64,000 bases of DNA from positions 224,001 through 288,000 of the forward strand of contig JBBRPR010000002.1 of NCBI GenBank assembly GCA_038227875.1. Reading direction: 5' to 3'. Below the pieces are notes generated by a model. That model was not told the DNA's origin. It searched no databases and was given only the letters and a program-made list of their open reading frames with translations. The position numbers were made by a program, and so were the translations under genes. How positions within the stretch are numbered: the stretch's first letter is position 1; each line of letters opens with the position of its first letter. Source of the stretch: Planctomycetota bacterium. GTDB taxonomy: Bacteria; Planctomycetota; SZUA-567; H5-PLA8. Positions 7,918 through 47,472 of the stretch are shown here, piece after piece.

Positions 7918-7945
7918 GACCCTCGGGTAAATTTACCCGAGGGTC
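7918..7945. repeat. AAATTT-centred palindrome, copy 1
   Basis: GACCCTCGGGT-AAATTT-ACCCGAGGGTC, perfect 28 bp. Confidence 0.9.
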
Positions 7946-7954
7946 TCAGACGCA

Positions 7955-7980
7955 ACCCTGTCGTAAATTTACAACAGGGT
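7955..7980. repeat. AAATTT-centred palindrome, copy 2
   Basis: ACCCTGTCGT-AAATTT-ACAACAGGGT, one mismatch. Confidence 0.85.
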
Positions 7981-7982
7981 CC

Positions 7983-8013
7983 TTGACTAATCATGCGATC
8001 ATCGTATGATTAG
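7983..8013 (+). promoter_or_regulatory. Sigma70-like promoter overlapped by a palindromic (probably autoregulatory GntR) operator
   Basis: TTGACT (7983-7988), 16-nt spacer, TATGAT (8005-8010); palindrome CTAATCATGCGAT-C-ATCGTATGATTAG at 7987-8013. Confidence 0.65.
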
Positions 8014-8017
8014 GTTC

Positions 8018-8704
8018 ATGGAAGCGATAATTACACCCTCGTTGGTCGATTCGGCTGTTCTCCAGCTTCGTAACTTGATTGAAACAGAGAACTTAGTGTC
8101 TGGAACGCGATTGCCGACGGAGCCGGTGCTCATGGCGCGCTTGGGTGTCAGTCGGACGGTTTTACGGGAAGCGATGAGCCGGTTGGAGCTGCTGGGCCTC
8201 GTCAAAATCAGGGCGGGGAAGGGCACTCATGTGGGCGATCCGGACTCGCTCGCGGCCGGATCGCGGTTGATCCGGACGGCGATCACATTGTCGTGCCGCG
8301 ATCTGTTGCAGTTCAACGAGCTGCGCACCGGGATTGAAAGCGAGTCGGCGCGGCTGGCGGCGCAACGCGCCACGGCCGACGAGATTGCAGCGTTGAAAAT
8401 CCGGTATGCGGAATTCGCGGCCACCGAAACGCGCGAGCCGTACGTGAAGCTCGATTGCGCGTTTCATCTGTCGATTGCAGCGATGGCGAAGAGCGAGCTG
8501 ATCACCAACGTGCTGCAGATCGTCCAGGATTTCATGGCCACGAGCATGGATCGGACCATGGCGCCTGACCCGGACTACGAGATCGGACGCACGCTGCACC
8601 GCGACATCGTTGACGCCATTGCGGCTCATGATGTGCCGGGCGCGGACGCGGCCATGCGCCGGCACATGGATGTGAACCGGCGCTTACTGGAACGAGCGGT
8701 GTGA
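8018..8704 (+). CDS. FadR/GntR family transcriptional regulator
   Basis: RLPTE..L...LGVSRTVLREA wHTH plus FCD domain (FH...H...HM). Confidence 0.92.
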   Translation: MEAIITPSLVDSAVLQLRNLIETENLVSGTRLPTEPVLMARLGVSRTVLREAMSRLELLGLVKIRAGKGTHVGDPDSLAAGSRLIRTAITLSCRDLLQFNELRTGIESESARLAAQRATADEIAALKIRYAEFAATETREPYVKLDCAFHLSIAAMAKSELITNVLQIVQDFMATSMDRTMAPDPDYEIGRTLHRDIVDAIAAHDVPGADAAMRRHMDVNRRLLERAV

Positions 8705-8725
8705 TGAGAGTCGGAGGAGACCGGC

Positions 8726-9553: not shown

Positions 9554-9558
9554 GTCTT

Positions 9559-10045: not shown

Positions 10046-11578
10046 CTACGGCGTTTCCGCCACTTTTTCCGGCGGCGGCAGACGCCGCGCTTTTTCCAGC
10101 AGGCGTTCGGCCATGCGCGGGCGCTTGCCGGCTTCGGCCATCGAAACGGCGGCCTGCGTCACGCCCAGGCGGCGCGCGAGTTCGGCCTGCTGCAATCCCA
10201 GTTCACGGCGGACGTGGCGGAGCAGTTCAGCGGCGCCGGGCGGATTGCCGCCCGATTCCATGCCGGGAAGCTGCGGCGGTGGCCGCAGCGCCTTGGGCGT
10301 CTGGCGCGCGAGTTCGTTGAGCTCCGATTGCACGAACTCCGCGGCGTGGCTGGCGCTGCCGAGAATTTCGCGCAGAAATTCCGGCGGCGCGACCTGCCAC
10401 ATTTCTTCGAGCGGCTCCGGCGGCGCGCTGGGCGCTCCGGCCTTCAATTCCAGGTGCGCGCGCTGCACGCGGCGGTTGGCGCCTTTGCCCTGCGCGGGAA
10501 GCTCGCCGGATTCCTTCGCTCCAGTCAGGGGCGCGGCGCGGTAGCGGTAACGCTCGGTTTCGAAGCTGCTGATGTAACCCTGTTCGACCATGTGGCGCAG
10601 CGAATTTTCGATGCGCTCCAGATGTTCGTAGCTCGTGTATTCGTCTTCCGTCAATCCCGCCATGCGCAGGAACGACCGCGCGCTGAGCTGCAGTGGCTTG
10701 CCGCCGTTGAGGCGGAATTTGATCGGCAGATGGACGCCCAGCGTCAGCGTCAGGCCGTGGGTGCGCGCGTTTTCGCGGGAGAGTTTTTTGAGCTGCAGCG
10801 TGTACAGGTATTTCGTGCGCCGCGATCCGGCGGCGGCGGCGTTGAACAGATGCGGGTTGAAGCGGAGAAAGATTTTCTCGTTGGTGGTGATCCGCTCCTT
10901 CAGGCGCTGGCCGTCGGCGACGGATTCTTCCCACGATTCGGCGGAGGCTTCGTCCTGGAGCAGCTTCACTTTCAGCGTTGCACCGCGGCGCGCACCGAAG
11001 CGGCGTTCCTGGACGATGGTCAGCGAGCAGAGCAGCGTCACGATCTCGCGCGCTTCCTTCAAGTGCTTGGCGGTGTGATAACCTTTGCCGAGCACGCGGT
11101 TGGCGCGCGAGTAGCCGAGGATGTCGAGATGCCGGTTGGCATCAAAAATGAAGCCGCCGGGCTGGCCGCCGGCGACGCTGGCCTGTTCTTCGGCGGCAAT
11201 CAGCACGCCGAGCAGATGCTTCAATCCCGCGGGGCCGAACTGCCGCTTGATCAGCATGCTGAGCTCGCCTTCGTTCCAGAGCGGGTCGTCGTCGAACAGG
11301 CTGACGCTCGTCCGCGCTTCGCTCTGCCGTCCGGAATAGACGATGTACGTGCGGATGCGTGCGGAGCGGACGTTGCCGTCGGCGTCGGGGCGGTCCTGCT
11401 GATCGGAGAGCACCGCGGCGAGATCGGCGCGGCGCGCGAGGCCGGAGAAGACGGGCATCAGGCCGAGGAATAGTGTGGTTGAAGGCAGTCGAAACGTTCC
11501 CGATTCCCCGGCGCCAGCCGCAGGAGTAGTCTCAGCCCGGTCGGACGGGCCAGCCAGAAAGGTTTCGCCCTCATTCAT
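10046..11578 (-). CDS. Hypothetical protein with C-terminal XRE/Cro HTH; N-terminal part resembles winged-helix replication initiators
   Basis: LRHVRRELGLQQAELARRLGVTQAAVSMAEAG is a clear HTH_3; the Rep-like call is by-eye inference only. Confidence 0.65.
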   Translation of the reverse strand: MNEGETFLAGPSDRAETTPAAGAGESGTFRLPSTTLFLGLMPVFSGLARRADLAAVLSDQQDRPDADGNVRSARIRTYIVYSGRQSEARTSVSLFDDDPLWNEGELSMLIKRQFGPAGLKHLLGVLIAAEEQASVAGGQPGGFIFDANRHLDILGYSRANRVLGKGYHTAKHLKEAREIVTLLCSLTIVQERRFGARRGATLKVKLLQDEASAESWEESVADGQRLKERITTNEKIFLRFNPHLFNAAAAGSRRTKYLYTLQLKKLSRENARTHGLTLTLGVHLPIKFRLNGGKPLQLSARSFLRMAGLTEDEYTSYEHLERIENSLRHMVEQGYISSFETERYRYRAAPLTGAKESGELPAQGKGANRRVQRAHLELKAGAPSAPPEPLEEMWQVAPPEFLREILGSASHAAEFVQSELNELARQTPKALRPPPQLPGMESGGNPPGAAELLRHVRRELGLQQAELARRLGVTQAAVSMAEAGKRPRMAERLLEKARRLPPPEKVAETP

Positions 11579-17830: not shown

Positions 17831-17835
17831 TTTCT

Positions 17836-20146: not shown

Positions 20147-20224
20147 ACAAGATTTGACGATTGGACTGTGACTTGCCGTAACCGTACGACAACACGTTGG
20201 CACACACTGGAAAAACGAACTTAC

Positions 20225-23200: not shown

Positions 23201-23638
23201 CGGTACGTCGATTCGTCCGTGGAACGTCTGCAGGTGAAAGTCAAAGGCATGACCGACACGCGACATTCCGTGGTCTGCAACGGACACGCGCTGCCGCTCC
23301 ATCCGACGGGAACCAACGGCGAATTCGTCGCCGGTGTGCGCTACCGCGCGTGGCAGCCGCCAAGTTGCCTGCACCCGACGATCCCGATCGATTCGCCACT
23401 GGCGTTTGATCTCTACGACAGCTGGAACAAACGCATGGTCGGCGGTTGCACGTACCACGTTGTCCATCCCGGCGGCCTCAGTTACGAGACGCTGCCGATC
23501 AACGCCAACTCCGCCGAAGCGCGCCGCATTGGACGATTCTCCATTATCCGCCAGAGGCCCGGCGCCATGGAGGTGACGGAGCCCGAGCGCAATCCGGAAT
23601 TCCCGTTCACTCTCGATCTCAGAAAAACGATGAAATAA
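20225..23638 (+). CDS. Transglutaminase-like domain fused to a DUF2126 putative amidoligase
   Basis: GSCRDSAW, ARFVSGYLIQL, DLHAW, FDPTSG; LTMGGEPTFV, VTPDPGVIEVN, GTGGGNH, GNTHRTEFCIDK. Confidence 0.92.
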   Translation: MSIRVALNHRTEYKFDRFVTLSPHTVRLSPAPHARTPILSRSLSIKPTKHFINIQQDPYSNYLARIVFPEPAKELVIDVSIIAQMVVINPFDFFVEEYAENYPFTYEKVLERELKPFLETEPPTPKLAALLETIPRQKKRTINFIVDINQLLQKEIQYLIRLEPGVQACEETLMLKSGSCRDSAWLMVQVLRNLGIAARFVSGYLIQLTQDIKSLDGPSGSATDFTDLHAWTEAYLPGAGWVGFDPTSGLLAGEGHIPLACTAEPSSAAPVSGAVDKCESEMHVSMTVTRIHEAPRVTKPYPEEIWTAIDALGIKVESDLKEQDVRLTMGGEPTFVGIDNTDNDEWNTAAVGPTKRFIAGNLIKRLRSRFAPGGLLHYGQGKWYPGESLPRWALGCYWRKDGEPIWNDPELIAKEDANEGFDAARASHFIRELAQRLDVDPACSIPGYEDVWQYMLAERRLPANVDPLDNRLDDPETRKRLSKVFDQGLEKIIGYALPLERRYFNDSTRWATGRWFFRREHLYLIPGDSPMGFRLPLDSHPWSPKDERAIYPLDPLAAAREALPPFANLRPGAQFIPGAHLHPGQRAVVANNPREWAAQRLFWPRNAGKPYSGAAPVPPLRSPIPDKKREPQQFDVIRTALCVEPRNGHLYIFMPPQRYLEDYLILAAAIEDTARELGTPVVIEGYTPPDDARLNAIKVTPDPGVIEVNIHPATSWQDLSKNTEILYAEAHQSRLQAVKYMIDGRQTGTGGGNHIVIGGGTPEDSPILRRPDVLKSLIAFWHNHPALSYLFSGMFIGPTSQHPRIDEARHDSLYELEIAFKNIPDGGNVPPWLVDRTLRNLLIDCTGNTHRTEFCIDKLYSPDTASGRLGLVEIRSFEMPPHERMSLAQQLLIRGMLSTFWKTPYKQKLARWGTELHDRFMLPHFVKQDFQDALLELNDRGLPFSMDWFLPHFEFRFPELGAFAQQGIHVELRAALEPWHVLGEENSPGGVARYVDSSVERLQVKVKGMTDTRHSVVCNGHALPLHPTGTNGEFVAGVRYRAWQPPSCLHPTIPIDSPLAFDLYDSWNKRMVGGCTYHVVHPGGLSYETLPINANSAEARRIGRFSIIRQRPGAMEVTEPERNPEFPFTLDLRKTMK

Positions 23639-23836
23639 TTTACTCCGCGCCGACAAATCGCTACAATACGTGTTCGGCGCTGGGGGGCGCATAGCAGCCC
23701 GTTGATAAACCTAAGGCCTGCGCCGTGAAACGCGTACTGCCAGGCGTTTCACGGAGAAGTTTGGCGGACTTTACTTTTTCAACGGGCTGTAAGCAGAGCT
23801 TTGACCGGCGGCGCCGGTTGAAGTTCAGGAAGAGCA

Positions 23837-27282: not shown

Positions 27283-27295
27283 GAGAGGTTTTTAT

Positions 27296-27325
27296 TGCGG
27301 ATTTCGGATTGCGGATTTCGGATTA
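27296..27325. repeat. Heptamer tandem repeat (CGGATTK)4
   Basis: TGCGGATTTCGGATTGCGGATTTCGGATTA. Confidence 0.8.
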
Positions 27326-27556
27326 GATTGGCGTGCACTCAGGAGAAGTGATTCGTTTTTCAAGGACTGGAATACGTCACTGGGAGCAGGCATTGCCGAT
27401 CTAATCCTCAATGCTGTTGAATGCTGTTTCTGCTCGCAGTGTTTGGTTTTGTACAGAGTGGTGTAAAGAAGTCGAAAACACTCACGTGTGCGCCTCACGA
27501 TCAACTGGCGCAGGATTTGCCGCTGGTGTAATGCAATCATCTGTGGGGACATCTTT

Positions 27557-28987: not shown

Positions 28988-28994
28988 GTTTTGA

Positions 28995-36100: not shown

Positions 36101-37637
36101 GACCGGTACCGAGTTTGTACAGGTGGAATTGCCGACGCTGCCAGGTTGGGAAGCGCTGACATGGAACGAAGAAGTTGAAGGCGTGTCCGTTGAGTTCGCG
36201 CGTGCGATGCCGGGCATGCTCTCCGACGTTACTGCCGCGGGGTTGTTCGCTCATGAAACAGTGGACGGCAACGAGGTCGCCGGAAAGATTCTCGAGAGTG
36301 TGCGCGAAAGGCATTGGGGCGAGGAGCGCGGATCGATCGATTTCGATAAGAAATTCATCACCCGCGTCCATATGAATGATCGCGGTTCACGGCTCGTGTT
36401 TATTGTGGGCATGCCTAGGGATAAAGAGACGACTCAAATCGTGGTGCAGTCGGGAGCGCTCCGCGCGCCGGGCCGTTGCCAGCTGCCCGGTGCTCGCGCG
36501 TGGTGCTGGTACAACCCGCTGGTGGATGTGACCAGTGCCGCCGACCTGGTGCAGGTAGCCGAAGATCAGAGCGGATCGTTGGAAGCTCCTGGTGTGGCGC
36601 TGGCGACGCAGGCTTGGCTCGAGAAAGCATGGACGGTGCTCGCGCGGGACGGTTGGAAGACGAAACCGTCTGTGGAATTCAAAGGTGCGATCGACTTGCA
36701 TGCGCTGGCGCTGACCGCGCTGGGCCGCAGCGACGCCGCCGACGCGAAGTCTCTCGTGGATGAATGGCTGGCGCAGCGTCCGAAGATTGCAGCGTTTACC
36801 AATTTCCAACAGTGGCGCCAGGAACGGTACGAGTTGGTGCTCGTAGCCCGATCGGAAGCGATGAATTCCGCGATCCGCGCGGCATTGCTCTCCCGCTATG
36901 CGTCGTGGGATGGTGTGCGCGCCGATTGGAAGGATCTGGGCCTGGGGGCGCTGCAGCCGCCGGATCTGGATGAGGTGAGCGGCTGGCTCGCGACGGAAAA
37001 GTCCCGCACGAAAGAGCTGCTGCCATTCGTTCCCGCGGAAGCCCGCGCCACGGCGCTGGCGATGCAGGCGCTGACGGTGCGCGACGCGCTGGCACTGTGG
37101 TTCGGGGCCGACACGCAGGCCGCGAATGCCTGGCTGTGGCGGCAACCGGCGGAGACATTCGTGCCGAAAGATACGGCCTCGCTGGATGAATGGGCCGTGA
37201 ATCTGCGCAAGGTCTACGGGCTCGAGATTGCCATTGATCCGCGTGCGCCATTGGTGTTGTCGCTCCCCGCGCCGGAAGAGAGGGAGACGCTGGCGCATTA
37301 CGTTCAGAATCATCTGGCCGCTGCCGAATTGGTGGCCAGCGGATTCGACGCGGGCAAGAGCGTCATGCTCTCGCATATCGGCGCGGCTCCAGACAACAAG
37401 CCGACGACGCTGGATGCGAAGTTCGCACTGTCGCTGCGTGTGTTTACCTTCGGCAGCGACGCGCGACACGTGGCGAATCTGCGCGAGGCCCTGGCGCTTC
37501 GCGGCATTCAATTGGTGGCGCCGGATTCGCCGGTGGCGTTTGGTCCCGATCTGACGCTGCGCGAGGCGCTTCAGGTTCTGGCCAAGTCGCTCAACAAGAG
37601 CGTGCGGGTCGAGAGCGATATCATTGAGCTGAAGTAG
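30171..37637 (+). CDS. Bacterial alpha-2-macroglobulin family protein
   Basis: Signal peptide; DRPVARPGQTV (MG2); VRARF.E.ALW; VPDNLTTFR; LP..LREGD; thioester motif CPEQTLSRF. Confidence 0.88.
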   Translation: MKRNCVLSVVLSVSFCCGAVFCAEGEDWNLPAPQRVAEGETLAARGEIAGAERILRQLENEAKATGSLAERTTAEARVDRLRLAVARAHVKGGSWPNALTLLNAIELEGKSPSIQRAICAATLDALKPLMLESDGQCVAPWTPLANDKFGPQQPSEALRAPYTRVDRKEAAELIAADLTAWERIETETGGVLTDSEKATAAALSPVTRTLVRYAWGVVSYETVAKAIDALPAAERRLQALRLTQLLLREHDLARAVPRLLDLEKSAKDDVSKAAAEELIRISVAYERLRTSLPMWNPGVDAAVKPYLADPAWAAKRDAIVKELDKAIGAVDLKIVLGGESAADLERGDSAPMASNRETSDVVVPADILAKAELGDHFETINPDVPDTHSTQKEKPEEKKETPEEKEARAKLDGERQKRAGEKPSRYHKLGYLAGVLRKNVLLDLDPKKAGSRETREEYELQVDHQEFMIEALGPDFQKDTSQGFRPLTPDSPLRLVILSRYHGDLDVDARRLPNREAFEKLDAGISPETIAQLPVAKNYTVPFATMLENLAPYPTKGIHEIKTHGLAPGFYVLTARARYSPVVAVTRLAVSETKVVVRHAPKEILIWTLDRITGTPHASKLKGEIKPNYIGQQAWGGAELPRRDRFDAIDATRFYQGLGDELNRNATDNADESYAAGVAEGKKLHDKFPLTPVALPTESDASGLARVEIPAGWRGHRCAIHVVADGCDVDAIHDLKDVVNEKVERVAEWVADRPVARPGQTVKIHGFVRENHNGRMIVARGGEIPLKLTAVGATLFEAKVAVDENGACDVEQIIDADTPDGLLSVQSVGVTPLCAIIGGEVATRRVRLELPAHPMQAGSRVKARAIVESAAGIPLVGIALKVQARFHHFERVAAAPLPFGEEFAVATASLKGDVQSAWNQDREVVSGLNGDVEFQIEIPDDGNMVGQVLVVAPGGRRAQASAEGRVLGLASGCVFHIDPIAEQPAGKPARLTLMARTLEGTPYTKPFQIADANGRVITTLTPDQNGRGVADVQLPPQLYMQVRPSAGDDGGWQRVSLNNQEPSAEVRGERGVLAARLDRKEYRIGETAHVYLRADRPALKVLMTTESSGVTRAQIVTITERAATVDIPIGDQDAPNATIALTALADDKVECVLLPLDVAKSERELTVQLTSNATKAEPGQTVQMTATVKDARGQAVANSSVVAAAFDVQLLSLADDPAPEFGLPFLAAGRVTHDVGWTTGFNTFSYGSAFVWLTPEWSFGPYGNDASGLGFGYGTGLGHGSFGARGSGGRRLMVMRHGGSRATVGTEPFRVRARFSEQALWSTKLTTGADGTVTFPFVVPDNLTTFRTVAYALDTRGYPGKAMLDLPVQRDVELTLDLPPELREGDRTEVALNVWNYSDTPQSVSLKPNFPLPVLSSKWISAEGAKPVPESLEIAPRSSASIAYMLDVKASALPVSFDTASNNLRFDVSATNKAGAKLDQAVFNVPLRLMGHPEHQTTQAVVREKGTVHVPFSGSFDPLRTSLTLTIRRGLRGLALDIRELQYVFPEHCPEQTLSRFVPAMVLASTLPEDQQTAEDHQKLERVLKSGIARMRTLHGAGFAPELQPLSAWYLRRLAQVPAGLEALRSNADWIKAAEYCENMIVISKGNATPDPFPVLSETAAQGPQGYGGFRSDLWTTFGASQSVYRGGAINRREVRARFTQVCQSCIEFARKHKLAPHDRALAGLLCAQLGFVDQANELLRLRLHDAEFTAPVVPEKGGAENVVPKSVWFDQQERTLAVALDVMTAVELKQPEAEILELALRLQDRQASRGAGFGTTFLNGVGLLALADAMKVTGVASKEAGSIVVSLGKFTTELPAGADVRRVTIDSAAVETAFKDGWDVSVAAPAGQLAGIAIDRTTLQPEKVGEKSADGIAESIRALRLTGTPDANTGVTLDRCLFVRPPADAATLLQQNWRPYAGQPLPLGTELLVVTKITRETGTEFVQVELPTLPGWEALTWNEEVEGVSVEFARAMPGMLSDVTAAGLFAHETVDGNEVAGKILESVRERHWGEERGSIDFDKKFITRVHMNDRGSRLVFIVGMPRDKETTQIVVQSGALRAPGRCQLPGARAWCWYNPLVDVTSAADLVQVAEDQSGSLEAPGVALATQAWLEKAWTVLARDGWKTKPSVEFKGAIDLHALALTALGRSDAADAKSLVDEWLAQRPKIAAFTNFQQWRQERYELVLVARSEAMNSAIRAALLSRYASWDGVRADWKDLGLGALQPPDLDEVSGWLATEKSRTKELLPFVPAEARATALAMQALTVRDALALWFGADTQAANAWLWRQPAETFVPKDTASLDEWAVNLRKVYGLEIAIDPRAPLVLSLPAPEERETLAHYVQNHLAAAELVASGFDAGKSVMLSHIGAAPDNKPTTLDAKFALSLRVFTFGSDARHVANLREALALRGIQLVAPDSPVAFGPDLTLREALQVLAKSLNKSVRVESDIIELK

Positions 37638-37652
37638 TCACTGTCTGTTTTT

Positions 37653-37680
37653 AACCAGGTATTAAATTTAATACCAGGTT
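37653..37680. repeat. AAATTT-centred palindrome, copy 3
   Basis: AACCAGGTATT-AAATTT-AATACCAGGTT, one mismatch. Confidence 0.85.
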
Positions 37681-37825
37681 CCCACGACTAAAGCTTGTCC
37701 ACCAGAACGTTGACAAGCGCGTGTGCCGAGGGGTGTTTTCTTGTTGACGGTAAGCTCCGCAGGATGACGATTACCGGTTCGGGGCGCACCGCCCCATGAC
37801 TAAAAATCACCCCCAGGAGCGCAAC

Positions 37826-38701
37826 ATGTCACAGTTGGACATTCGTATCGGCACGCTGGCCGGAATGGATAAAGGCGCGGCGTACCTGAAACAAATCATC
37901 CCACACGGCTTCGAGAGCTTCTCCATGACGTTCTGGGAGAAGATCGGCGACATCAACGTCGAAAAGACCGCCAAGGAAGCGCGCGAAGTCTGCGGCGACA
38001 AGGCGATCATCAGTTCGATCGGGATGTTCGGCAACCCGCTGCAGAACGAAAACACGGCTAAGGATTTCGCGCGCTGTATCGACAACGCTCATCTCTTCGG
38101 CACCAATCTGGTCTGCGGATTTGCCGGCGCGATCGAAGGCAAGCCGCTGCCGGAATCGATGCCGCAGTTCAAGAAGGTGTGGGGCGAGCTGGCCAAGCGC
38201 GCGGAGAGCAAGGGCGTGCGCATCGCGTTTGAAAATTGCGACATGGGCGGCTGGTGGCACGACGTCAAATGGAACGTCGCTCATTCCCCGACCGCGTGGG
38301 AAATGATGTTCAACGAAGTGCCGAGCGACGCGCTGGGCCTCGAGTGGGAGCCCTGCCACCAGATGGTCTCGCTGATCGATCCGCTGCCGCAGCTGCGCAA
38401 GTGGGTCAACAAGGTCTTCCACGTTCACGGTAAGGACGCGACAGTGGCGTGGGAAGTGATCAAGACGTCGGGCATTCGCGGCGGCAAGCCGTATGTCTGG
38501 CACCGCACGCCGGGCTTCGGCGACACGAACTGGACGGATGTGATCAGCATCCTGCGCATGGGCAAGTTCACGGGCAGCATCGACATTGAAGGCTGGCACG
38601 ACCCGATCTACCGCGGCGATCTGGAAATGACCGGGCAGGTCCACGGTTTGAACTATCTGAAGAACTGCCGCGGCGGTCCGTATATTCAGAATCCGAAGTA
38701 A
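37826..38701 (+). CDS. Sugar phosphate isomerase/epimerase (xylose-isomerase-like TIM barrel)
   Basis: IAFENC, LEWEPCH, HVHGKD, PGFGDTNW, IDIEG; AGGAG SD. Confidence 0.88.
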   Translation: MSQLDIRIGTLAGMDKGAAYLKQIIPHGFESFSMTFWEKIGDINVEKTAKEAREVCGDKAIISSIGMFGNPLQNENTAKDFARCIDNAHLFGTNLVCGFAGAIEGKPLPESMPQFKKVWGELAKRAESKGVRIAFENCDMGGWWHDVKWNVAHSPTAWEMMFNEVPSDALGLEWEPCHQMVSLIDPLPQLRKWVNKVFHVHGKDATVAWEVIKTSGIRGGKPYVWHRTPGFGDTNWTDVISILRMGKFTGSIDIEGWHDPIYRGDLEMTGQVHGLNYLKNCRGGPYIQNPK

Positions 38702-38716
38702 GAGAAAGTGAATCGG

Positions 38717-38750
38717 CCGGCCCTCTCTGAATCAGAGAGGGCCGGTTTTT
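38717..38750 (+). terminator. Intrinsic terminator
   Basis: CCGGCCCTCTCTG-AAT-CAGAGAGGGCCGG-TTTTT between convergent genes. Confidence 0.85.
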
Positions 38751-38757
38751 ATACGCC

Positions 38758-39930
38758 TTAAACCGCCGCCACCTGAACCTGCCCCAACCGCTTCTCCCAA
38801 CCCGTCTGATGAATATTCAAATACGCCGACTGCTCGTAGGGATGCGCAAGCGCGACGTCCACATTCAGATCCACGCCAAGTCCCGGCGCGTCCGGCAGCG
38901 AGAGGTGGCCGTTTTCCGGATTGATACGCGGCGACCACGTGACCAGGTCGCGCGCCCACGCGTCGTTGAAAGAATCGAAGTGCTCCTGGATGAGAAAATT
39001 GGGCACGCACGCCGCCAGTTGCAGACAGACAGCCGTCGCCACGGGCCCGCCGCTCTGGTGCGGCGCGATGAAACTGCCGTGGGCCAACGCCAGATGCGCG
39101 ACTGCCAGCGTGTTTCCGATTCCGCCGAGCGACATCGGTTCGGGCTGGAAGATGTTCACCCCGCCGGCGGCGGCGAGCGTGTAGAACTGGCCGACGGTGT
39201 CGTACATTTCGCCCGTGGCCACGCGGATCGGCGAACGTTTCGCGACTTCGTTGGCCGGTTCTTCGCGCTCGCGGGTCGTCGGCTCTTCCCACCAGTAGAT
39301 GCTCAGCGGCGCGAAGCGTTCGGCGACGCGGACAGCTTCGGCGGCGGTGAATCGGGCGTGAACGTCAATGAGAATGCGGAAATCGCGGCCCAGTTTTTCA
39401 CGCAGGGCTTTGACGATGTCGTAGGACAATTGGAGGTCGTCGTCTTCAATGAAATTCTGCGCAGTGCCGAAGGGGTCGAGCTTCAGCGCGTGGAAGCCCT
39501 TTTTCACGACCGCGTCGGCGGCCTTGCAGAAATCGGCGGGCGTGCGTTCGGTGCGGTACCAGCCATTGGCGTAGCCAAGGACCGACTTGCGGATCTTGCC
39601 GCCGAGCAGCTGATAAATCGGCACACCCAGCGACTTGCCGAGAATGTCCCAGCAGGCGACTTCGATCGCGGCCATGGCGGTGCGGTGGATGTGGCCGCCG
39701 TCGAGCGAGACGCTTTCCATCAGGCGCTTGGCCAGCGCTTGGACTTGGCGCGGATCCTGGCCGATGGCGAGGTGTTCGAGTTCGCGCACCGCGGCTTCAG
39801 TGGTCTTGATGAAACCGTTGAGCGTGCCTTCGCCGATGCCGTGAATGTCCTGGTCGGTGTGAACTTTGACCAGGAGCCAGTTCTTCCAGCCAGCTCCGAC
39901 GGCGAACGTTTCGATCTGCGTGATTTTCAT
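38758..39930 (-). CDS. Mandelate racemase family acid-sugar dehydratase (galactonate dehydratase-like)
   Basis: ACWDILGK.LGVPIYQLLGG, YANGW, KLDPF, IDVH.R, EEP, ATGE. Confidence 0.88.
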   Translation of the reverse strand: MKITQIETFAVGAGWKNWLLVKVHTDQDIHGIGEGTLNGFIKTTEAAVRELEHLAIGQDPRQVQALAKRLMESVSLDGGHIHRTAMAAIEVACWDILGKSLGVPIYQLLGGKIRKSVLGYANGWYRTERTPADFCKAADAVVKKGFHALKLDPFGTAQNFIEDDDLQLSYDIVKALREKLGRDFRILIDVHARFTAAEAVRVAERFAPLSIYWWEEPTTREREEPANEVAKRSPIRVATGEMYDTVGQFYTLAAAGGVNIFQPEPMSLGGIGNTLAVAHLALAHGSFIAPHQSGGPVATAVCLQLAACVPNFLIQEHFDSFNDAWARDLVTWSPRINPENGHLSLPDAPGLGVDLNVDVALAHPYEQSAYLNIHQTGWEKRLGQVQVAAV

Positions 39931-39941
39931 GCGATGTCCTT

Positions 39942-40937
39942 TCAAGAAAGCGCGGAGACAGCCGCGGCAGCGATGCTCTCGGCGTCCATTTTGTAATGTT
40001 TGATCAAGTATGGAATCGATCCGCTCTCGCAGAAGCAATCGGGAATGCCGATGCGACGGAGCTTCACCGCGATGCCGGCATCGACGAGCGTGTCGGCGAC
40101 GGCGCTGGCGAGACCGCCGGTGATGACGTGATTTTCCGCGGTGACCAGCGCCTTCGTGCGTTTCGCCAGCGCGAGGACCGCGTCGCGGTCGAAGGGTTTG
40201 ATCGTGCCGAGGTGGAGCACCGACGCGCGAATGCCTTGCGCATGGAGTTGCTTCTCAGCGTCGAGCGCTCGGCCGGTCATCAAGCCCGTGGAGATGATGC
40301 CCACGTCGGCGCCTTCCGTCAGTAGCTGACCTTTGCCCAGCGTGAATTGATATTTTACTGGATCGAGCACGATTGGAACCTGTCCCCGCAGCAAGCGCAT
40401 GTACACCGGGCCCGGGTGCGCCGCGATGGCGGGAATGACTTGCGACAATTCCGTCGCGTCGCACGGATCGATCACCGTGAGGTTCGGGATCGAGCGCATC
40501 AGCGCGAGGTCTTCGATGCCTTGATGCGTGCCGCCGTATCCCGTCGTGAGTCCCGGCAGACCCGCGATGATCTTGACGTTCGCTTTTCCCAGCGCCGCGC
40601 CGATGGCGATAAAATCATACGCGCGGCGCGTGGCGAAAACGCAGTACGTCGTCGCGAAGGGAATCAGACCCGTGCGCGCGAGGCCCGCGGAGATGCCGAT
40701 CAGATTTTGTTCAGCCATGCCGACTTGATAGAAGCGTTCGGGAAAGCGCTCCGAGAAAATATGCATGTCCGTGTACTTGCTGAGATCGGCGCTCAAGCCC
40801 ACGATGCGGCTATCGGCTTCGGCGGCTTTGACCAACGCATGTCCGAAAGGCGCAGTGGCCGTGGCACTCGCGCCGGTCGTGTCGGAGGTCAGAATGTTGC
40901 CGGTGACTCCGCGGTTGGTGGAAAGAGTGGCGGTCAT
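39942..40937 (-). CDS. Transketolase C-terminal (pyrimidine-binding) subunit
   Basis: GMAEQNLIG.SAGLA, GGTHQGIED, GPVYMRL, TAENH...GGL. Confidence 0.9.
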   Translation of the reverse strand: MTATLSTNRGVTGNILTSDTTGASATATAPFGHALVKAAEADSRIVGLSADLSKYTDMHIFSERFPERFYQVGMAEQNLIGISAGLARTGLIPFATTYCVFATRRAYDFIAIGAALGKANVKIIAGLPGLTTGYGGTHQGIEDLALMRSIPNLTVIDPCDATELSQVIPAIAAHPGPVYMRLLRGQVPIVLDPVKYQFTLGKGQLLTEGADVGIISTGLMTGRALDAEKQLHAQGIRASVLHLGTIKPFDRDAVLALAKRTKALVTAENHVITGGLASAVADTLVDAGIAVKLRRIGIPDCFCESGSIPYLIKHYKMDAESIAAAAVSALS

Positions 40938-41800
40938 TGGGCTGCTCCTGATTCCAATTGAGCTCGGGCGATCGCCCACTCGTCGGGGCTGACGCGGATG
41001 AAGTGATTTTTCTCACGCTGCTCGAACAGTGGAACGCCTTTGCCCATCAGTGTGTCGAGGACAATCGCGTGCGGCTTGTCGGCGACGGTTTTGCACGCGT
41101 CGAGCGCAGCGAGCAGCGCGGCGATGTCGTTGCCGTTAATGCGCTGCGTGTGCCAGCCGAACGCGCGCCATTTCTCGTCGACGGATTCGACATTCATCAC
41201 GCGCGCCGGCGGTCCATCGGCCTGCTGGTTGTTGCAGTCGATGAATGCAAAGAGATTGCCGAGACGGTAGTGCGCGCCGGCCATCGCGGCTTCCCACGTG
41301 GAGCCTTCCTGCAGTTCACCGTCGGAGAGCAGATTGAAAATGCGCGGAAAGCCTGCGCCGCTCTCGGTGCGCGGCAAGCGCCGCACCCCCAGCGCCATAC
41401 CGATGGCCTGCGACAGGCCGTGGCCCAGTGAGCCGCCCGTCATTTCGAAACCAGGTGTGACTTCGCTGCCCGACATTTCCAGGCGAGAACTGTCGGCACC
41501 ATACGTGTCGAGCTCCGCCAGCGGAATTACGCCGGCTTCGGCCAGCGCGGCGTAAAGGCCGATCGAGTAGTGACCGATCGAAAGCACGAAGCGGTCGCGC
41601 GCGGGCCAAACGAGATTCTGCGCGTCGTAGTTCATCTCGCGGAAGTAGAGTACTGCGAGCAGATCGGCGATGCCCAGGCCCTGCCCGACGTAGCCTTGGC
41701 CCACGATCTCCGCCATGTGCAACACGTGGCGTCGCAGATTCTTGGCGTGCGCCTGAACGTGCGCGATTTCCGTGGCGCGATCGGTGAGTGTCGAATTCAT
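40934..41800 (-). CDS. Transketolase N-terminal (TPP-binding) subunit
   Basis: RDRFVLSIGH, GGSLGHGL, SDGELQEGSTWEA...N. Confidence 0.9.
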   Translation of the reverse strand: MNSTLTDRATEIAHVQAHAKNLRRHVLHMAEIVGQGYVGQGLGIADLLAVLYFREMNYDAQNLVWPARDRFVLSIGHYSIGLYAALAEAGVIPLAELDTYGADSSRLEMSGSEVTPGFEMTGGSLGHGLSQAIGMALGVRRLPRTESGAGFPRIFNLLSDGELQEGSTWEAAMAGAHYRLGNLFAFIDCNNQQADGPPARVMNVESVDEKWRAFGWHTQRINGNDIAALLAALDACKTVADKPHAIVLDTLMGKGVPLFEQREKNHFIRVSPDEWAIARAQLESGAAQ

Positions 41801-42570
41801 GCGAGCTCCATTCCGCCGGAGAAATTGAAGCGCTCGGCGGTGACGTAAGCGGCTTCGGTGGATGCCAGCCAGACCGCGGCGGCGGCGACTTCCGCGGGTT
41901 CGACGCGGCGGCCCATCGGCAATCCTTTGGTGCGATCCTCTTTCAGTTCTTCCGTGGTCTTGCCCGTGACCTTTTGCAGATCGCGTTCGAGTTCATCGAT
42001 CATGCCGCCGGTCATGCGGCCGGGGACCAGCGCGTTGACGGTGATGCCCTGCGGCGCCCACGCCACGGCGGCGGAACGGACCATGCTGTCGACGGCCGCT
42101 TTGCTCGCGGCATATGAGGCGAAATTGGGGAAGCCGAGTTTTGACGCGGGGCTGGAGATGTGAATGATGCGGCCGTACTTTTTCGGCAGCATCACTCGCG
42201 CCGCGGCCTGCATGGCGAAGAACGCGCCGCGCACGTTGACCGCGAAGACTTTGTCCCAGCGTTCGGGCGTGACTTCGAGCATGCTGTCGACGAGACAGAC
42301 CGCCGCGCAGTTGACGAAGATGTCGATGCCCCCCAGGCGCGATGTCACCTGCTCGGCGGCGTCGCGGCAGGCGTTGGCGTCGGAGACATCCAGCCGCAGC
42401 GCGTGGTGCGAGCTCGGCGATTGAAGCAGCGCGACGGTAGCGGCGGCGGCCGGTTCGTTGAGATCCGCGACGGCGACGCGCGCGCCTTCGAGTGCGAAAC
42501 GCTTCGCGATTTCACGGCCGAGACCGTTGCCGGCGCCGACGATCCAGGCGGTGCGATTTGCTAATAGCAT
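41797..42570 (-). CDS. SDR family NAD(P)-dependent oxidoreductase
   Basis: GAGNGLG, YAASK, ITVNALVPG. Confidence 0.92.
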   Translation of the reverse strand: MLLANRTAWIVGAGNGLGREIAKRFALEGARVAVADLNEPAAAATVALLQSPSSHHALRLDVSDANACRDAAEQVTSRLGGIDIFVNCAAVCLVDSMLEVTPERWDKVFAVNVRGAFFAMQAAARVMLPKKYGRIIHISSPASKLGFPNFASYAASKAAVDSMVRSAAVAWAPQGITVNALVPGRMTGGMIDELERDLQKVTGKTTEELKEDRTKGLPMGRRVEPAEVAAAAVWLASTEAAYVTAERFNFSGGMELA

Positions 42571-42583
42571 GAGTTCTCCTCAA

Positions 42584-42604
42584 TCGCGGACGTAACGTCC
42601 GCGA
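42584..42604. other. Intergenic hairpin
   Basis: TCGCGGACG-TAA-CGTCCGCGA just upstream of the SDR ribosome-binding site. Confidence 0.55.
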
Positions 42605-42634
42605 ATTCCATTTGGCATTCCGGGTAACGAGACG

Positions 42635-43441
42635 CTACGCGTTCACCGGCTGCTTGCGTTGGTGATGCAAGTCAGCGACGTGGGCTTCGTTGTCAATGAC
42701 CTGCTGCAGATGGCGCATGCGGCGCGGGTTGGCGGTGTTGCGCATCAGGTCGGAATGGGTGCGCGGTGCCCACGCTGGGATGTGAATGCCGAGGTATTTC
42801 TTCAGCCCTTCGACTTCGTCCGGCGTTTTGCAGTGGCTGCCGAGATTGAGCGTAAACATGCGGCGGTGCGTGCTGCCGCCGTACGAAGCGTGCTTGGTGT
42901 TGTGATTGAAGATCGCCAGATCGCCCGGTTGAGTCTCGAGTCCGACGGCGGGAATCTCGCTGCCGTGAAGGCCGAACGCGGTCTTCGAATTTCCGACCTG
43001 GCCAGCCGCCTGCCCGAACGTGTCGTCGACATTGTGCGAGCCGGGAATCACGCGCAACGCGCCGGTGTTAAACGTCAACGGATCGAGATAGAAGGCGATT
43101 TTGATGAAGCGGACGCGGGTGTCCCACCAGCCGTCCGAATGCCAGCCGGTCTCGCCGGAGTAATAATTGCCGTCGCCGGCGAGGTAATTGAAATCGGGAC
43201 CGAGAATCGATTCGGCGACGCCTTCCAGAATGGGATGTTCGAGCAGCGTGCAGAGTTTTTCGCTGCCGTCGATGAACGGCACGACGGAGGTGCGCTTCGA
43301 TCCGTCGTGAACATTGTTGGTCTTGCGGTGGACGGCTTCGAACTCGCTGGTGATCCAGCCGATGTCATTTTTCATCGCGCCTTTGACGTGCAGAAAGCCA
43401 AAGGTATTGAAAAAGTTCAGTTGCTCCTGCGACAGTTTCAT
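42635..43441 (-). CDS. PhyH family Fe(II)/2OG dioxygenase
   Basis: FNTFGFL, WHSD, GALRVIPGSH, PGDLAIFNH..KHAS; similar to 8726..9553. Confidence 0.9.
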   Translation of the reverse strand: MKLSQEQLNFFNTFGFLHVKGAMKNDIGWITSEFEAVHRKTNNVHDGSKRTSVVPFIDGSEKLCTLLEHPILEGVAESILGPDFNYLAGDGNYYSGETGWHSDGWWDTRVRFIKIAFYLDPLTFNTGALRVIPGSHNVDDTFGQAAGQVGNSKTAFGLHGSEIPAVGLETQPGDLAIFNHNTKHASYGGSTHRRMFTLNLGSHCKTPDEVEGLKKYLGIHIPAWAPRTHSDLMRNTANPRRMRHLQQVIDNEAHVADLHHQRKQPVNA

Positions 43442-43472
43442 GATCGTTCTCCAAAGTCCAGTAAGATTGGGG

Positions 43473-43500
43473 TACCCTGGTACAAATTTGTACCAGGGTA
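43473..43500. repeat. AAATTT-centred palindrome, copy 4
   Basis: TACCCTGGTAC-AAATTT-GTACCAGGGTA, perfect 28 bp. Confidence 0.9.
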
Positions 43501-43516
43501 GGTGGAATTGAATCGG

Positions 43517-44221
43517 CTACTGGCGTTCGTTGAGCGCCGCGAGGGCGATGCGGCTGTATTCCATGTGGCGATCGATCTCCGCGCCGGCGACTTTGGGATC
43601 GCGGGTGCGGATGGCGTCGAGCAATTGGCGGTGGATCGTGCGGCTGTAGTCCACGTTGCGCGGCTGAGGCGTGGTGTTGACCATCGTCGCCATGATGAAT
43701 TCCTGCAGCACTTTGAACACGTTCTGCATCGGCTCGTTGGACGTCATTTCGACGAACTTGTAGTGGAAGGCAAAGTCGGCGTGAATCGAACCGAGAAAGT
43801 CCTGTCCGTCGCGATCGATCTCGGTGCAGAGGCGTTCGAGTTCGGCGAAGTCGGCATCGGTGGCGATCTCCGCTACGCGCCGGGCCGCGTAGCATTCGAT
43901 CACGGCGCGAAATTCGTGGAACTTCATCAGTTCGTGCGGCGCAATGGTGAGTGCGCTGCGCAGCAGTTGAGCGCTGCCGATCAGCGCCGTGCCGCTGGCG
44001 ACAAACGTGCCGCGGCCGTGCTGGACGTCGAGCAATCCCACGGTCTGCAGGCGGCCGATTGCCTCGCGCAGCACCGACCGGCTGACACCAAAGCGCTTGG
44101 TCAATTCGCCCTCGGTGGGGAGCTGATCCCCCGTGGCGAGTTTCTTTTTCGCGACGAGCGAACGGAGCTGGTCGACGACGTTGTCGACCAAAGAGGGTGT
44201 GGACGCGCGCTGAAGTTTCAT
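43517..44221 (-). CDS. FadR/GntR family transcriptional regulator
   Basis: LPTEGEL...FGVSRSVLREA plus FCD domain; paralog of 8018..8704. Confidence 0.92.
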   Translation of the reverse strand: MKLQRASTPSLVDNVVDQLRSLVAKKKLATGDQLPTEGELTKRFGVSRSVLREAIGRLQTVGLLDVQHGRGTFVASGTALIGSAQLLRSALTIAPHELMKFHEFRAVIECYAARRVAEIATDADFAELERLCTEIDRDGQDFLGSIHADFAFHYKFVEMTSNEPMQNVFKVLQEFIMATMVNTTPQPRNVDYSRTIHRQLLDAIRTRDPKVAGAEIDRHMEYSRIALAALNERQ

Positions 44222-44237
44222 GGCCGGCCTCCGAAAG

Positions 44238-44258
44238 ATCAGATGTCGGACGTCTGAT
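44238..44258. promoter_or_regulatory. Palindromic FadR-type operator upstream of the GntR gene
   Basis: ATCAGATGTC-G-GACGTCTGAT (one mismatch), 16 nt from the start codon. Confidence 0.65.
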
Positions 44259-44568
44259 GTTTACCCTGCGGTTTGGCCGAAGTCAATGGGGTGGTGATAA
44301 AATTCTTCTAAGTCATTTATTTGAAATAAGATGTGTCATAAAATTAATTTATCTGTCCGCTAAAAGTAGTCGCGGTAACAGTAACAGCTCGGCTGCCGAG
44401 TCTGTCCGTTACCGACAAATTTTCGCCGGACTGAGATTGCTTACACGGGGCTTGAACTCAGGGAGAACCCGACCGACCACCGACTACATTTAGCCGGACA
44501 GAAATTGCAGCGACGAAGAGATTGCGCACCCATTGTACTATTCGGAACTCGAGCTATTATATACACGC

Positions 44569-45489
44569 ATGTACAAAAACTTCTTCGTCGACCCGAAAGC
44601 GACCTGTGTCGAGCGCATTCCCGCCACGTTTCCGGGGTTTCCCAAGGCGCTGAAGCTCAATGCGCTGGAGAATTACTGGTCGGCGTTACAGATGACGCCG
44701 GTCAGTTCGGTCGAATGGCGCTGCACGCCGGCGTGGACGGTCGGTCCCCGAGTCGTTCCGGATTCGATGTTTTTCCACATTCACAGCGGGCGGGGGAGGG
44801 GCTTCGTCGAGGACCAGCACTTTGAACTGCGGCCCGGCGATTTCATGCTGATTCCAAAGGGTTGTTCTCATGGAGCAGTGCAGGAGAAAGGGCACCCATT
44901 TCATCTCACGGCGACGCACTTTCACGCGCACGTTTTCGGTGGCGCGAATCTCCTGGATCTGCTCGGCTTTCCCGTGCACATCCGCACGCATCCGCAGCGC
45001 GACGCGGAGATCGTCCGGTTGGTGCGGGAGAATGATCGCGAGTACGGTGCGAAGGCCCCGGGCTACCGCCAATCCGTCGCGGCGAACCTGACGCGCATCC
45101 TGCTTTATATTGTCAGGAATCATGGCGAGCACTTCAAGCCGCCGTACGCGTCGGACCGCAGCCAGGAATTGCGCCGGCTGCTCCCGGCGTTCGATTGTCT
45201 GGAACGAAACTTGACCGACGGCCTGATCGCCATCGGCGACCTGGCGAAGACGATTCACGTCAGCGAAGTGCAGTTCCGCAAGCTCTTCCGCCGGGTCACC
45301 GGCGTCAGCCCGGCGCGTTACATCCAATCGCGGCGCATCGAACGCGCCTGCCGCATGCTGCGCGAATCGAATGCGTCGGTGGAGGAAGCGGCCGTCGCGT
45401 CTGGATTTTCGGACAGCGCGTTTTTCTGCCGCGTTTTCAAGACGTGGACCAAGACGACGCCCACGGAATACCGCAAGAGCGCCGTCTAA
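44569..45489 (+). CDS. AraC family transcriptional regulator
   Basis: Cupin-like N-domain; FRKLFRRVTGVSP, SGFSDSAFFCRVFK...TPTEYRK; start uncertain. Confidence 0.9.
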   Translation: MYKNFFVDPKATCVERIPATFPGFPKALKLNALENYWSALQMTPVSSVEWRCTPAWTVGPRVVPDSMFFHIHSGRGRGFVEDQHFELRPGDFMLIPKGCSHGAVQEKGHPFHLTATHFHAHVFGGANLLDLLGFPVHIRTHPQRDAEIVRLVRENDREYGAKAPGYRQSVAANLTRILLYIVRNHGEHFKPPYASDRSQELRRLLPAFDCLERNLTDGLIAIGDLAKTIHVSEVQFRKLFRRVTGVSPARYIQSRRIERACRMLRESNASVEEAAVASGFSDSAFFCRVFKTWTKTTPTEYRKSAV

Positions 45490-45493
45490 TTAG

Positions 45494-47416
45494 CTACGCG
45501 TCCACCGGCTGCTGTAACTGCGCTAGAACCTTACGCGCAAAATTTCGGACCAGCGCGCGCGGATCGTCGGCGTGGCGTTGCGCACAGGCGAGGGCTTCGG
45601 CGTCGGCGCCCCACTTGGCGAGCACCGGCGCGGCGGCGAGATCGATCTCGAAGCGCCGGTCGTCGGAGATCGGCGCGCCGTAGGCGCCCATGCTGTTTTG
45701 CAGGACCAGCTTCGTGTCGACCTTCAGCGCGATGGCGGCGCGCACGGCTTCGAGCGCTTCTTCCTTCGTGGCGACGCGACCCAGCGCGTGAATCGCGGTG
45801 ACGATCTTGCGATGCGTCGGCGCACCGTCAGTCAGCAGGCCCAGGGTCAGATCAATCGACTTCGTTTCGCGGAGGCCGAGGAAGTCGAGCAGGTAGAACG
45901 CGCCGAGGTAGCGTTCCAGTTCGCGGTTGTGGACCGCTTTGTCTGCTCGGCGGCTGAGCACCACGGCTTTCAGCACGTCCACGCCATCGGTGATTTTCTG
46001 CAGTGCGAGCACGGAGGCAGCCATCAGGCGCTGGTCGTCGACGCCGTCACGGACCGCGGCTTTGAGTTCTGCTTGAGCCGCGGCGCCGCGCTGAACAAGT
46101 TCGCAAATCGCATGCGATTCACGCGGCGAACCGAAGAGCTTCAGCAGTCCGGCGACGTCGGTCTTCTTCAGTTCGTCGTTGGGCGGAAGGATGCTGCCCA
46201 GTCCGGTTCCCGAGAGGACTTCTTCCGGCAGCGCGTTGCGTTCGACCAGGCGCTTCTGCACGGCGGAGACGTTGACCTTGCGCACGGTGGTCTTCGATGC
46301 GATCGCGACTTTCGCGGCGACGGCCGCGGATTCGCCGAGCGCCTGGATATCGCGCTGCATGCGGAAAAGCTGATGCGCATCATGCGTCATGCCGACGGCG
46401 CGGCAGGCGACAAGGAGATTGTCGACGACCTTCGGCACCTGGCAGCGGTACGGCACGTCGTGGCTCATTTGCTGATGCCACGCGTTGAAGCCGCCGATCC
46501 ACAGTTGCGCGTCGCGGGATTCGTTCTCGTAGTCGAAAGCATGGTTGTCGTAGTGCGCTTTGGCGCGCGTGACGACATCGGGAAAACGGCGCGCCTGCTG
46601 CTGGTCTTCGAGCGTGACCACGTATTCGGCGTCGATAAAGCGGCTCTCGCGCAGACCCAGGATCGGCGAGACGTAGATCATGCGCGACGCGGCGTCGTAG
46701 CTGTTGCGCGCCAGGTGCGAGCGGCCGAGAACCTGCGCGCGGGACTGGTCGAGCGCGTTGGTCGGGTCGACGTAACCGGCGTCGAAATTCCGGAAGGAGA
46801 CCGATTCGTTGTTCTGCACCAGGCCCGGCGCGAGGCTGTAGGGCTGCGGGGCGTGGTCGCCTTCACGGCCGAAGTTGAACGGCGCGCCCGCGGCGGCGGC
46901 GACATCGGCGTCGCCGGTGCAGTCGATAACGACGCGCGCTTCGAGCCAGAAGATGCCGTGATCGTTTTCGGCGACGATGCCCTTCAACGCATTACCGTCA
47001 AGCACCGCTCCGACGAAAAAGCTGCGGTAGAAACACTGCACGCCGGCTTCGTCGGCCAATTCCTGGAGCGCGAGTTTCTTGGATTCGGGATGGAAGCCGC
47101 TGGCCTTACCGCCGATGCGCGCGGTCCATGCGGCGGTGCGCTGGTCGATCTCGTGCTGAATGCCGGTCTGGATGCCGTGGTAGTACATGTGGATGCCGCC
47201 GCCGGTGCCGATGCCGCCGAGAAAGCTCTGCGGTTCGACCACCGCTGTCTTGAGGCCTTCCTGCCCCGCGACAATCGCGGCGGGCGCGCCGCCGGTGCCG
47301 CCGCCGACCACGACGACGTCGAACGTGCCGAGCTTCGGAATCAGCGCGACGTCCAGTGTGGCAAGTCCGCGCGCGTCGCTCGTGGGAAGTTGGTTGGTGC
47401 GTACGGTCAAATTCAT
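45494..47416 (-). CDS. FAD-dependent oxidoreductase with helical C-terminal extension
   Basis: DVVVVGGGTGG, LGGIGT.G, VIDCTGDADVA, LRESR, VPYRC.VP...DNLLVACR. Confidence 0.87.
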   Translation of the reverse strand: MNLTVRTNQLPTSDARGLATLDVALIPKLGTFDVVVVGGGTGGAPAAIVAGQEGLKTAVVEPQSFLGGIGTGGGIHMYYHGIQTGIQHEIDQRTAAWTARIGGKASGFHPESKKLALQELADEAGVQCFYRSFFVGAVLDGNALKGIVAENDHGIFWLEARVVIDCTGDADVAAAAGAPFNFGREGDHAPQPYSLAPGLVQNNESVSFRNFDAGYVDPTNALDQSRAQVLGRSHLARNSYDAASRMIYVSPILGLRESRFIDAEYVVTLEDQQQARRFPDVVTRAKAHYDNHAFDYENESRDAQLWIGGFNAWHQQMSHDVPYRCQVPKVVDNLLVACRAVGMTHDAHQLFRMQRDIQALGESAAVAAKVAIASKTTVRKVNVSAVQKRLVERNALPEEVLSGTGLGSILPPNDELKKTDVAGLLKLFGSPRESHAICELVQRGAAAQAELKAAVRDGVDDQRLMAASVLALQKITDGVDVLKAVVLSRRADKAVHNRELERYLGAFYLLDFLGLRETKSIDLTLGLLTDGAPTHRKIVTAIHALGRVATKEEALEAVRAAIALKVDTKLVLQNSMGAYGAPISDDRRFEIDLAAAPVLAKWGADAEALACAQRHADDPRALVRNFARKVLAQLQQPVDA

Positions 47417-47446
47417 CGCAAGATCCTCAATTCGAATCCAAGGAGT

Positions 47447-47472
47447 ACCCCAGGGTAAATTTACCCTAGGGT
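47447..47472. repeat. AAATTT-centred palindrome, copy 5
   Basis: ACCCCAGGGT-AAATTT-ACCCTAGGGT, one mismatch. Confidence 0.85.

Follow-up and report, generated by a model that had tools for sequence, protein, structure and literature searches.

A dispersed palindrome family in a planctomycete genome and its probable origin from a recognition site within ParB-like genes

Why would a bacterial chromosome carry short intergenic palindromes whose ends are fixed while their arms differ from copy to copy and still remain self-complementary? This question is raised by a 64,000-nt stretch of a Planctomycetota genome (assembly GCA_038227875.1, contig JBBRPR010000002.1, positions 224,001 to 288,000; the whole stretch is called the window here), in which a preliminary description had listed five copies of the pattern ACC-N7-AAATTT-N7-GGT. 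A pattern scan recovered all five (26-bp cores starting at 7919, 7955, 37654, 43474 and 47447) and found none in 100 shuffles; as described, all are intergenic and their arms pair with zero or one mismatch. We propose, with a probability of roughly two in three, that these palindromes are short copies of a self-recognition site lying inside a family of ParB-like genes and that they are docking sites for the encoded proteins. A set of dimeric proteins that differ in specificity would best account for arms that vary and yet keep their symmetry.

The host assembly (9.3 Mb, 88% complete) contains 95 exact matches to the pattern, which include the five in the window. The genome-wide enrichment of palindromicity, suggested earlier as a check, was evident: 230 of 2160 ACC-N20-GGT strings were at least 80% self-complementary inside, vs 0–15 for each of 19 other spacings (12–31), and pairing is 0.83 at pair 13 and only 0.38 at pair 14. 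The AAATTT centre holds for the five window copies but is not a fixed feature of the family, in which it is only the commonest centre besides CAATTG, GAATTC, CACGTG, CAGCTG and CCATGG. With other centres allowed, we counted 373 units in 297 clusters with recurring linkers; spacings between clustered units peak at 33–34 bp and the arrays are mosaic. There are 170 core types, 60 of them in at least two copies, and perfect symmetry over 16 bp was counted in 239 of 341 intergenic units, in a search that itself selected for symmetry. The exact pattern has 0–2 matches in each of 40 relatives and 0–3 in each of 400 genomes of the phylum, similar to a reversed-pattern control.

A co-occurring DNA-binding gene, which the preliminary description had proposed looking for, was found as an expanded family of ParB-like genes. 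Eighteen open reading frame (ORF) hits of this solitary family occur in the genome, and at least two further copies are cut at contig starts. In gene matches, 17 in this genome compare with 0–2 in the 40 relatives and 0–2 in each of the 400 phylum genomes, with at most five candidates scored per genome; both expansions, of palindromes and of ParB-like genes, were thus seen in this genome only. According to ORF lists read by eye, the genes are solitary, have a common promoter region, lie in unrelated chromosomal contexts and have no parA partner beside them. A canonical ParABS system was rejected, as the genes stand alone without a visible parA and the palindrome units are not enriched near them genome-wide. 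The best PDB sequence match of the protein is ParB (E 0.09), and the predicted model (pLDDT, the predicted local distance difference test score, 71.8) has ParB, pNOB8 ParB, Noc, Spo0J and KorB as top structural matches among 33 at E ≤ 0.001, with a ParB N-terminal fold followed by a helix-turn-helix (HTH) in the predicted structure. A D-G-R-x-R-x-x-A motif is invariant in alignments of these proteins, and we take GxxRxxA to be the nucleotide-binding motif of ParB-CTPase clamps. The family is related to phage proteins and methyltransferase fusions and counts 3513 representatives at E ≤ 1e-30; besides it, the genome contains three other ParB_N matches. A metagenome scan yielded 57 loci with only one close (61%), and a viral scan with a single G008 protein gave no match. 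In P0016, residues 283–345 are predicted with moderate confidence to fold as the small alpha/beta domain found at the C-terminus in the solitary clade; this domain had no family match and an atlas search returned no usable hit.

In the ParB-like ORFs that reach the linker, one codon position just before the HTH is always occupied by a palindrome, which differs from gene to gene and lies in one frame. To this we added a homologue set of 58 genome and 80 viral loci together with the loci of this genome and its relatives, in which 163 homologue ORFs were hit, 153 were alignable and 146 were scored. A palindrome precedes the HTH in 127 of these 146, vs 10 of 267 control windows, and it is family-wide, including phages and other phyla. 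Among 77 representatives it is read in one frame by 46, in another by 30 and in the third by 1, and because two main frames are used it is the palindrome DNA and not the peptide that is conserved. An explanation of AAATTT as fixed by Asn-Leu codons was rejected, since homologues keep AAATTT in other frames. The rare pattern matches in two relatives also lie inside genes, directly before an HTH. One relative has the same palindrome-plus-HTH module on an integrated element, in a primase-like gene of the CHC2 zinc-finger/Toprim kind (L001:5332-6354, minus strand). Two relatives share one perfect intergenic palindrome (L002:6041-6066 and L003:5984-6009) in seemingly similar integrated elements; both of its gene-frame readings contain a stop, and the flanks examined include no ParB-like gene.

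Residues of the recognition helix covary with bases of the site: position +2 with bases 4–5, +1 with 7–8, +6 with 3 and +5 with 6, the best pairs reaching z 10–14 against shuffles that are blind to kinship. Expressed as a half-site code, Arg at +2 goes with C5 in 100 of 104 cases, Arg at +6 with G3 in 42 of 46, and Arg at +1 with C7 in 36 of 36. A code trained on 66 foreign proteins recovered the true pairing of nine paralogues in this genome, which none of 100000 permutations equalled, and six of the nine ranked first in this out-of-sample test. Arg at +6 and an NW/NC linker agree in 52 of 53 proteins, with at least nine changes on the tree. In Caulobacter ParB, R173 and N178 contact parS (PMC7383237); from a motif alignment we infer that +1 and +6 correspond to these residues. 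Since the arms covary with the recognition helix in homologous genes, they carry information, which argues against the reading that only the hairpin shape matters and agrees with the earlier view that the copies are not a simple operator recognized through fixed bases. On these sequence correlations, each dimer is likely to bind the palindrome in its own gene.

Two further details of the in-gene region were noted. The codons before the palindrome read VVKSQH in L008, L012 and L013 and VVDFNH in L007, L011 and L015, and by eye 13 of 18 nt agree as reverse complement, which suggests spacer inversion by template switching. A 5'-truncated paralogue (L016:4900-5200) combines one paralogue's site with another's helix and breaks the code at base 3; it is likely a recombinant pseudogene.

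The intergenic units retain traces of coding sequence. An upstream coding flank of a gene (at least 9 of 12 nt) accompanies 99 of 341 units where 1.6 were expected, and a downstream coding flank 20 of 341 where 2.8 were expected. When 160 distinct units were read in the gene frame and compared with the linkers of 29 foreign clade proteins, 34 matched in 7–8 of 8 residues (16.2 +/- 3.4 after column permutation, maximum 25 in 60), and stops in both orientations occurred in 6 units vs 23 in controls (minimum 11). Many clade proteins have D-P-x-x-N-L-x-x-G in the linker, and the ACC and GGT ends with their exact spacing probably arise because the D/N-P-x-x-N-L-x-x-G codons of this lineage give them. 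At half-site base 4, G has a frequency of 0.65 in intergenic units vs 0.70 in foreign in-gene sites, and at base 5, C has 0.72 vs 0.71; GGT at 11–13 is private to this genome. When gene DNA is compared with the rest of the genome, the matches fall chiefly on the palindrome, and the two central bins hold 105 place-bins. Eighty-nine places span the palindrome centre, mostly over 26–55 bp and in one case with 125 bp of coding homology; the homology ends are ragged, with left ends clustering 20–25 nt from the centre (37 of 89). Whole-gene relics were rejected, as gene DNA outside the palindrome was found at 0–16 places per 50-nt bin, and the larger side peaks listed in this search are other repeats (the +150 bin was only partly inspected). 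The occurrence of the in-gene palindrome throughout the family and its covariation with the helix make the gene the likely source of the copies.

Several results weigh against this interpretation. The ParB-like proteins have no family match in Pfam. The code has exceptions, as paralogue C14 ranks only 6 of 9 and Arg occupies +2 in 2 of 12 VNL linkers. Independent contrasts on well-supported branches number only 4–5 (0 against, p 0.125–0.25; for Arg at +6, 5 contrasts with 4 for and 0 against, p 0.125), and site and helix are close enough that they could travel as one cassette. Identity with an assembled gene's site over the central 16 bp holds for just 45 of 341 intergenic units; with so few matches, many units would come from unassembled or lost paralogues or have changed later. 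None of the five window copies equals the site of an assembled gene, and copies 3 and 4 score poorly, with no good cognate among the nine paralogues tested. Extra cognate sites occurred within 5–10 kb at 1 of 66 foreign loci, so dispersal is not a family rule and is special to this genome, and a single genome is a single co-occurrence. A palindrome lies within 2.5 kb of none of the seven Y1 transposase loci. Finally, units lie within 25 nt on 120 of 369 gene 3' sides vs 19 of 305 5' sides, which also suits the life of an RNA hairpin or of a neutral repeat akin to repetitive extragenic palindromic (REP) sequences.

As to mechanism, each dimer, bound to its own in-gene palindrome, would load in the way of the CTP clamps ParB, Noc and KorB and, as KorB does, repress the gene that encodes it; that such clamp loading and self-repression operate here, favouring new site-helix pairs, we put at even odds. 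Paralogues would change site and helix together, probably escaping repression by resident copies. Over a long time, pieces of 26–45 bp centred on the site would be copied out, and their arms would preserve the specificities of paralogues that are present, missing from the assembly or lost. By analogy with REPs, an HUH transposase that recognizes hairpins and acts in trans, the foremost candidate, might copy the hairpin and some flank into gene ends; this copying agent is the weakest step of the explanation and is named tentatively. Template switching, by which both arms are rewritten, may add to the symmetry, making copies more symmetric and evening the arms. The genes could, more speculatively, be self-addressing selfish genes that hold their own loading address in codons, change address and helix together and seed short copies chromosome-wide.

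The placement of the units bears on the alternatives. With gene positions from simple gene calls, 364 units with listed centres were placed (9 of 373 were dropped): 207 between tandem genes, 81 between convergent and 49 between divergent genes, 23 inside genes and 4 at contig edges. Convergent and divergent regions thus hold 81 and 49 of 337 intergenic units, vs 14% and 22% of all intergenic regions, and 158 of the 207 tandem copies are closer to the upstream stop. This placement is REP-like, not operator-like. Ordinary REPs or bacterial interspersed mosaic elements (BIMEs), spread by a transposase like the REP-associated tyrosine transposases (RAYTs), forming RNA hairpins at 3' ends and with the in-gene copy as one insertion, would fit it, and the units are indeed high-copy extragenic palindromes of 20–40 bp, mostly tandem or convergent, with mosaic arrays and strong, stable predicted RNA hairpins, in a genome with eight Y1_Tnp matches. 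However, GTAG and CGTC tags occur in 11 and 9 of 682 arms, near the background of about 4.5 and 13.5, and all seven loci of the Y1_Tnp matches have other flanking repeats. A RAYT link was rejected on the latter ground, together with a best RAYT model match that falls below the cut-off (in an assembly 88% complete), and no copies flank a cognate RAYT/TnpA gene. Copies with coding flank, and an in-gene palindrome that covaries with the helix and is also present in phages and other phyla, weaken this alternative further because the direction of copying runs from the gene; we regard it as quite improbable. At the level of RNA, a U-tract on one side accompanies 49 of 341 units, a terminator scan accepts copy 1 solely on its minus strand, and Rfam has 0 matches in the window. 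The copies might instead be gene-derived and functionless, neutral parasites or fossils of ParB-like coding DNA whose binding is incidental and whose survival after stops reflects least harm. Most units do lack an assembled cognate, 170 core types face fewer than 20 gene matches, and units pile up with unrelated repeats and are not clustered near the genes; the perfect symmetry of most units, with the caution given above, and very weakly the unchanged palindrome of copy 3 in a related strain (see below) speak against it, and it seems to us rather unlikely.

The preliminary description had also compared the 11+6+11 geometry with tyrosine-recombinase sites, which would here serve as crossover sites for integrating or shuffling accessory DNA. 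Such sites have inverted arms around a directional spacer of 6–8 bp. The fixed length and ends and the 33–34 bp peak of tandem spacings recall them, but the centres of the palindromes are themselves symmetric, the homology ends are ragged, no recombinase appears among the ORFs listed beside the source genes (read by eye), and the arms covary with a ParB-type helix. Genome-wide, the units show no target duplications of 5–6 bp, and the small excess of 3–4 bp duplications (20 vs 4.1 and 9 vs 2.2) is not separated from shared flanks. Recombination sites are therefore very improbable. It is scarcely credible that one global transcription factor reads only ACC, AAATTT and GGT as its operator; the promoter-like site abutting copy 2 and the start codons some 30 nt after copies 4 and 5 would suit this, whereas fixed bases give no reason for self-complementary arms, the copies avoid 5' positions, and the relatives lack the palindrome family.

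Turning to the window itself (Table 1), the highest scores of copies 1, 2 and 5 among the nine paralogues tested are with C11 and C107, both of the SGKSV type. One copy identical to copy 1 exists elsewhere in the genome (G000:C1:136250), and the asymmetric variant that copy 2 represents is found again at G000:C41:35184. Copies 1 and 4 match foreign linkers in 7 of 8 residues, copy 4 in this way the linker of homologue P0254, and the left flank of copy 3 is gene-like (8 of 12 nt). The promoter-like site reported beside copy 2 is present (TTGACT-16-TATGAT), its -35 box abutting the copy. Copies 4 and 5 do lie about 30 nt before start codons, as had been described, but they also lie just past stop codons. 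A placement of the copies near accessory genes, on the other hand, was not seen as a genome-wide bias by a weak proxy (neighbour GC content 0.616 vs 0.609). Contigs of run X2, from a related strain, hold copies 3 and 5; copy 5 is spanned gap-free, and copy 3 has two flank changes and no listed change inside the palindrome. No empty-site alleles were seen at 36500-48500 in four of eight listed runs, which were noisy and resolved copies 3 and 5 only.

Table 1. Palindrome copies and associated features in the window
Feature	Position	Strand	Description
Copy 1	7918..7945	none	perfect 28-bp palindrome; gene-frame reading PRVNLPEG; predicted SGKSV-type site
Copy 2	7955..7980	none	26-bp palindrome with a single mismatch; gene-frame reading PVVNLQQG / PVVNLRQG; predicted SGKSV-type site
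Copy 3	37653..37680	none	16 nt past stop of alpha-2-macroglobulin gene
Copy 4	43473..43500	none	perfect palindrome; 17 nt past gntR stop, 32 nt before phyH start; reads PGTNLYQG
Copy 5	47447..47472	none	between two flavin adenine dinucleotide (FAD) oxidoreductase genes; 9 nt past stop, 30 nt before start; predicted SGKSV-type site
Additional family member	56307..56332	none	centre CTATGG; missed in the preliminary description
8-nt linker	56333..56340	none	type found in ParB-like coding sequence (reverse complement of VVKSQH codons)
Additional family member	56341..56366	none	centre CAATTG; 11 nt beyond minus-strand stop codon
AT-rich dispersed repeat copy	7887..7904	+	separate family, often brackets arrays of 26-bp palindromes
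Sigma-70-like promoter of gntR gene	7983..8010	+	consensus match only; 2 nt from copy 2

Other features of the window were noted in passing. A second inverted repeat, TAATCAT-N11-ATGATTA at 7989-8013, was seen by eye to overlap the gntR promoter match and looks like an operator of the gntR regulator itself. The AT-rich repeat family has 84 matches genome-wide at up to three mismatches (some by chance), often as inverted pairs; its partner gene was not found, and four-helix-bundle genes as candidate gave only two matches. A protein of about 500 amino acids encoded at 10046-11578 (minus strand) has a C-terminal XRE-type HTH as its sole recognized part. A cluster of transglutaminase, DUF2126 amidoligase, circularly permuted ATP-grasp and alpha-E genes with duplicated members spans 20168-30017, and the alpha-2-macroglobulin-family gene at 30171-37637 encodes 2488 amino acids with weak Pfam matches only.

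If the palindromes are copies of an in-gene site, a dispersed palindrome family has a concrete origin in part of a protein-coding gene, and the case is relevant to the question of where REP-like repeats come from. With a predicted target inside every gene, thousands of natural pairs of protein and site become available, together with a simple helix-to-base code for ParB-fold clamps, a group in which most orphan members have no known site. Orthogonal clamp-site pairs could then be drawn from the family in large numbers, for labelling DNA or for repression over a long range. Should the genes be self-addressing, the chromosome would hold a network of hundreds of clamp-loading sites written in a four-residue protein-DNA code, and a REP-like repeat family would have been caught being born from a protein-coding gene. 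If the copies are neutral, the repeat is still explained and the regulatory interest is lost. The earlier remark that the element was not recognized as a described one agrees with the literature, in which no description of a self-encoded site or of this repeat family was found (subscription papers and supplements were outside the scope). The string 'palindrom' is absent from the main texts of PMC12704722 and PMC13229309; the supplements of PMC12704722 could bear on novelty.

Among known systems, ParB-parS, Noc-NBS and KorB-OB are ParB-CTPase clamps with palindromic sites (PMC7383237, PMC11790492) and resemble the present family in having a ParB N-domain and HTH fold (here predicted), a palindromic site and many dispersed sites, with specificity (here, too, predicted) in a few residues around the recognition helix (PMC7383237). 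In the account of that work, parS and NBS preferences are conserved within each family. Here, unlike in these systems, each gene contains the site of its own protein in frame, one chromosome holds many paralogues that differ in site, the dispersed sites are pieces of coding sequence, and no parA partner was seen. Orphan ParB-like proteins carried by mobile elements, MT-A70 fusions among them, are the subject of one survey (PMC12704722); they are alike in being orphans with phage and methyltransferase-fusion kin, whereas the genes described here are solitary, have their own promoter and a small C-terminal domain and lie in unrelated chromosomal contexts. Quasi-palindrome template switching as presented in PMC8604942, through arm homogenization and spacer inversion, would explain the perfect symmetry and the 8-nt linker that is inverted between paralogues; it is a mutational process, not a spreading mechanism. 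REPs, BIMEs and REPINs with their RAYTs, as portrayed in PMC3733652 and PMC8266576, share with the present family palindromes of 20–40 bp in hundreds of copies, lineage specificity, a position between tandem and convergent genes and mosaic clusters. The family differs from them in that it has no GTAG/CGTC tag, loop or bulge and flanks no transposase gene, and in that it comprises dozens of core sequences in one frame with their origin in a protein-coding gene.

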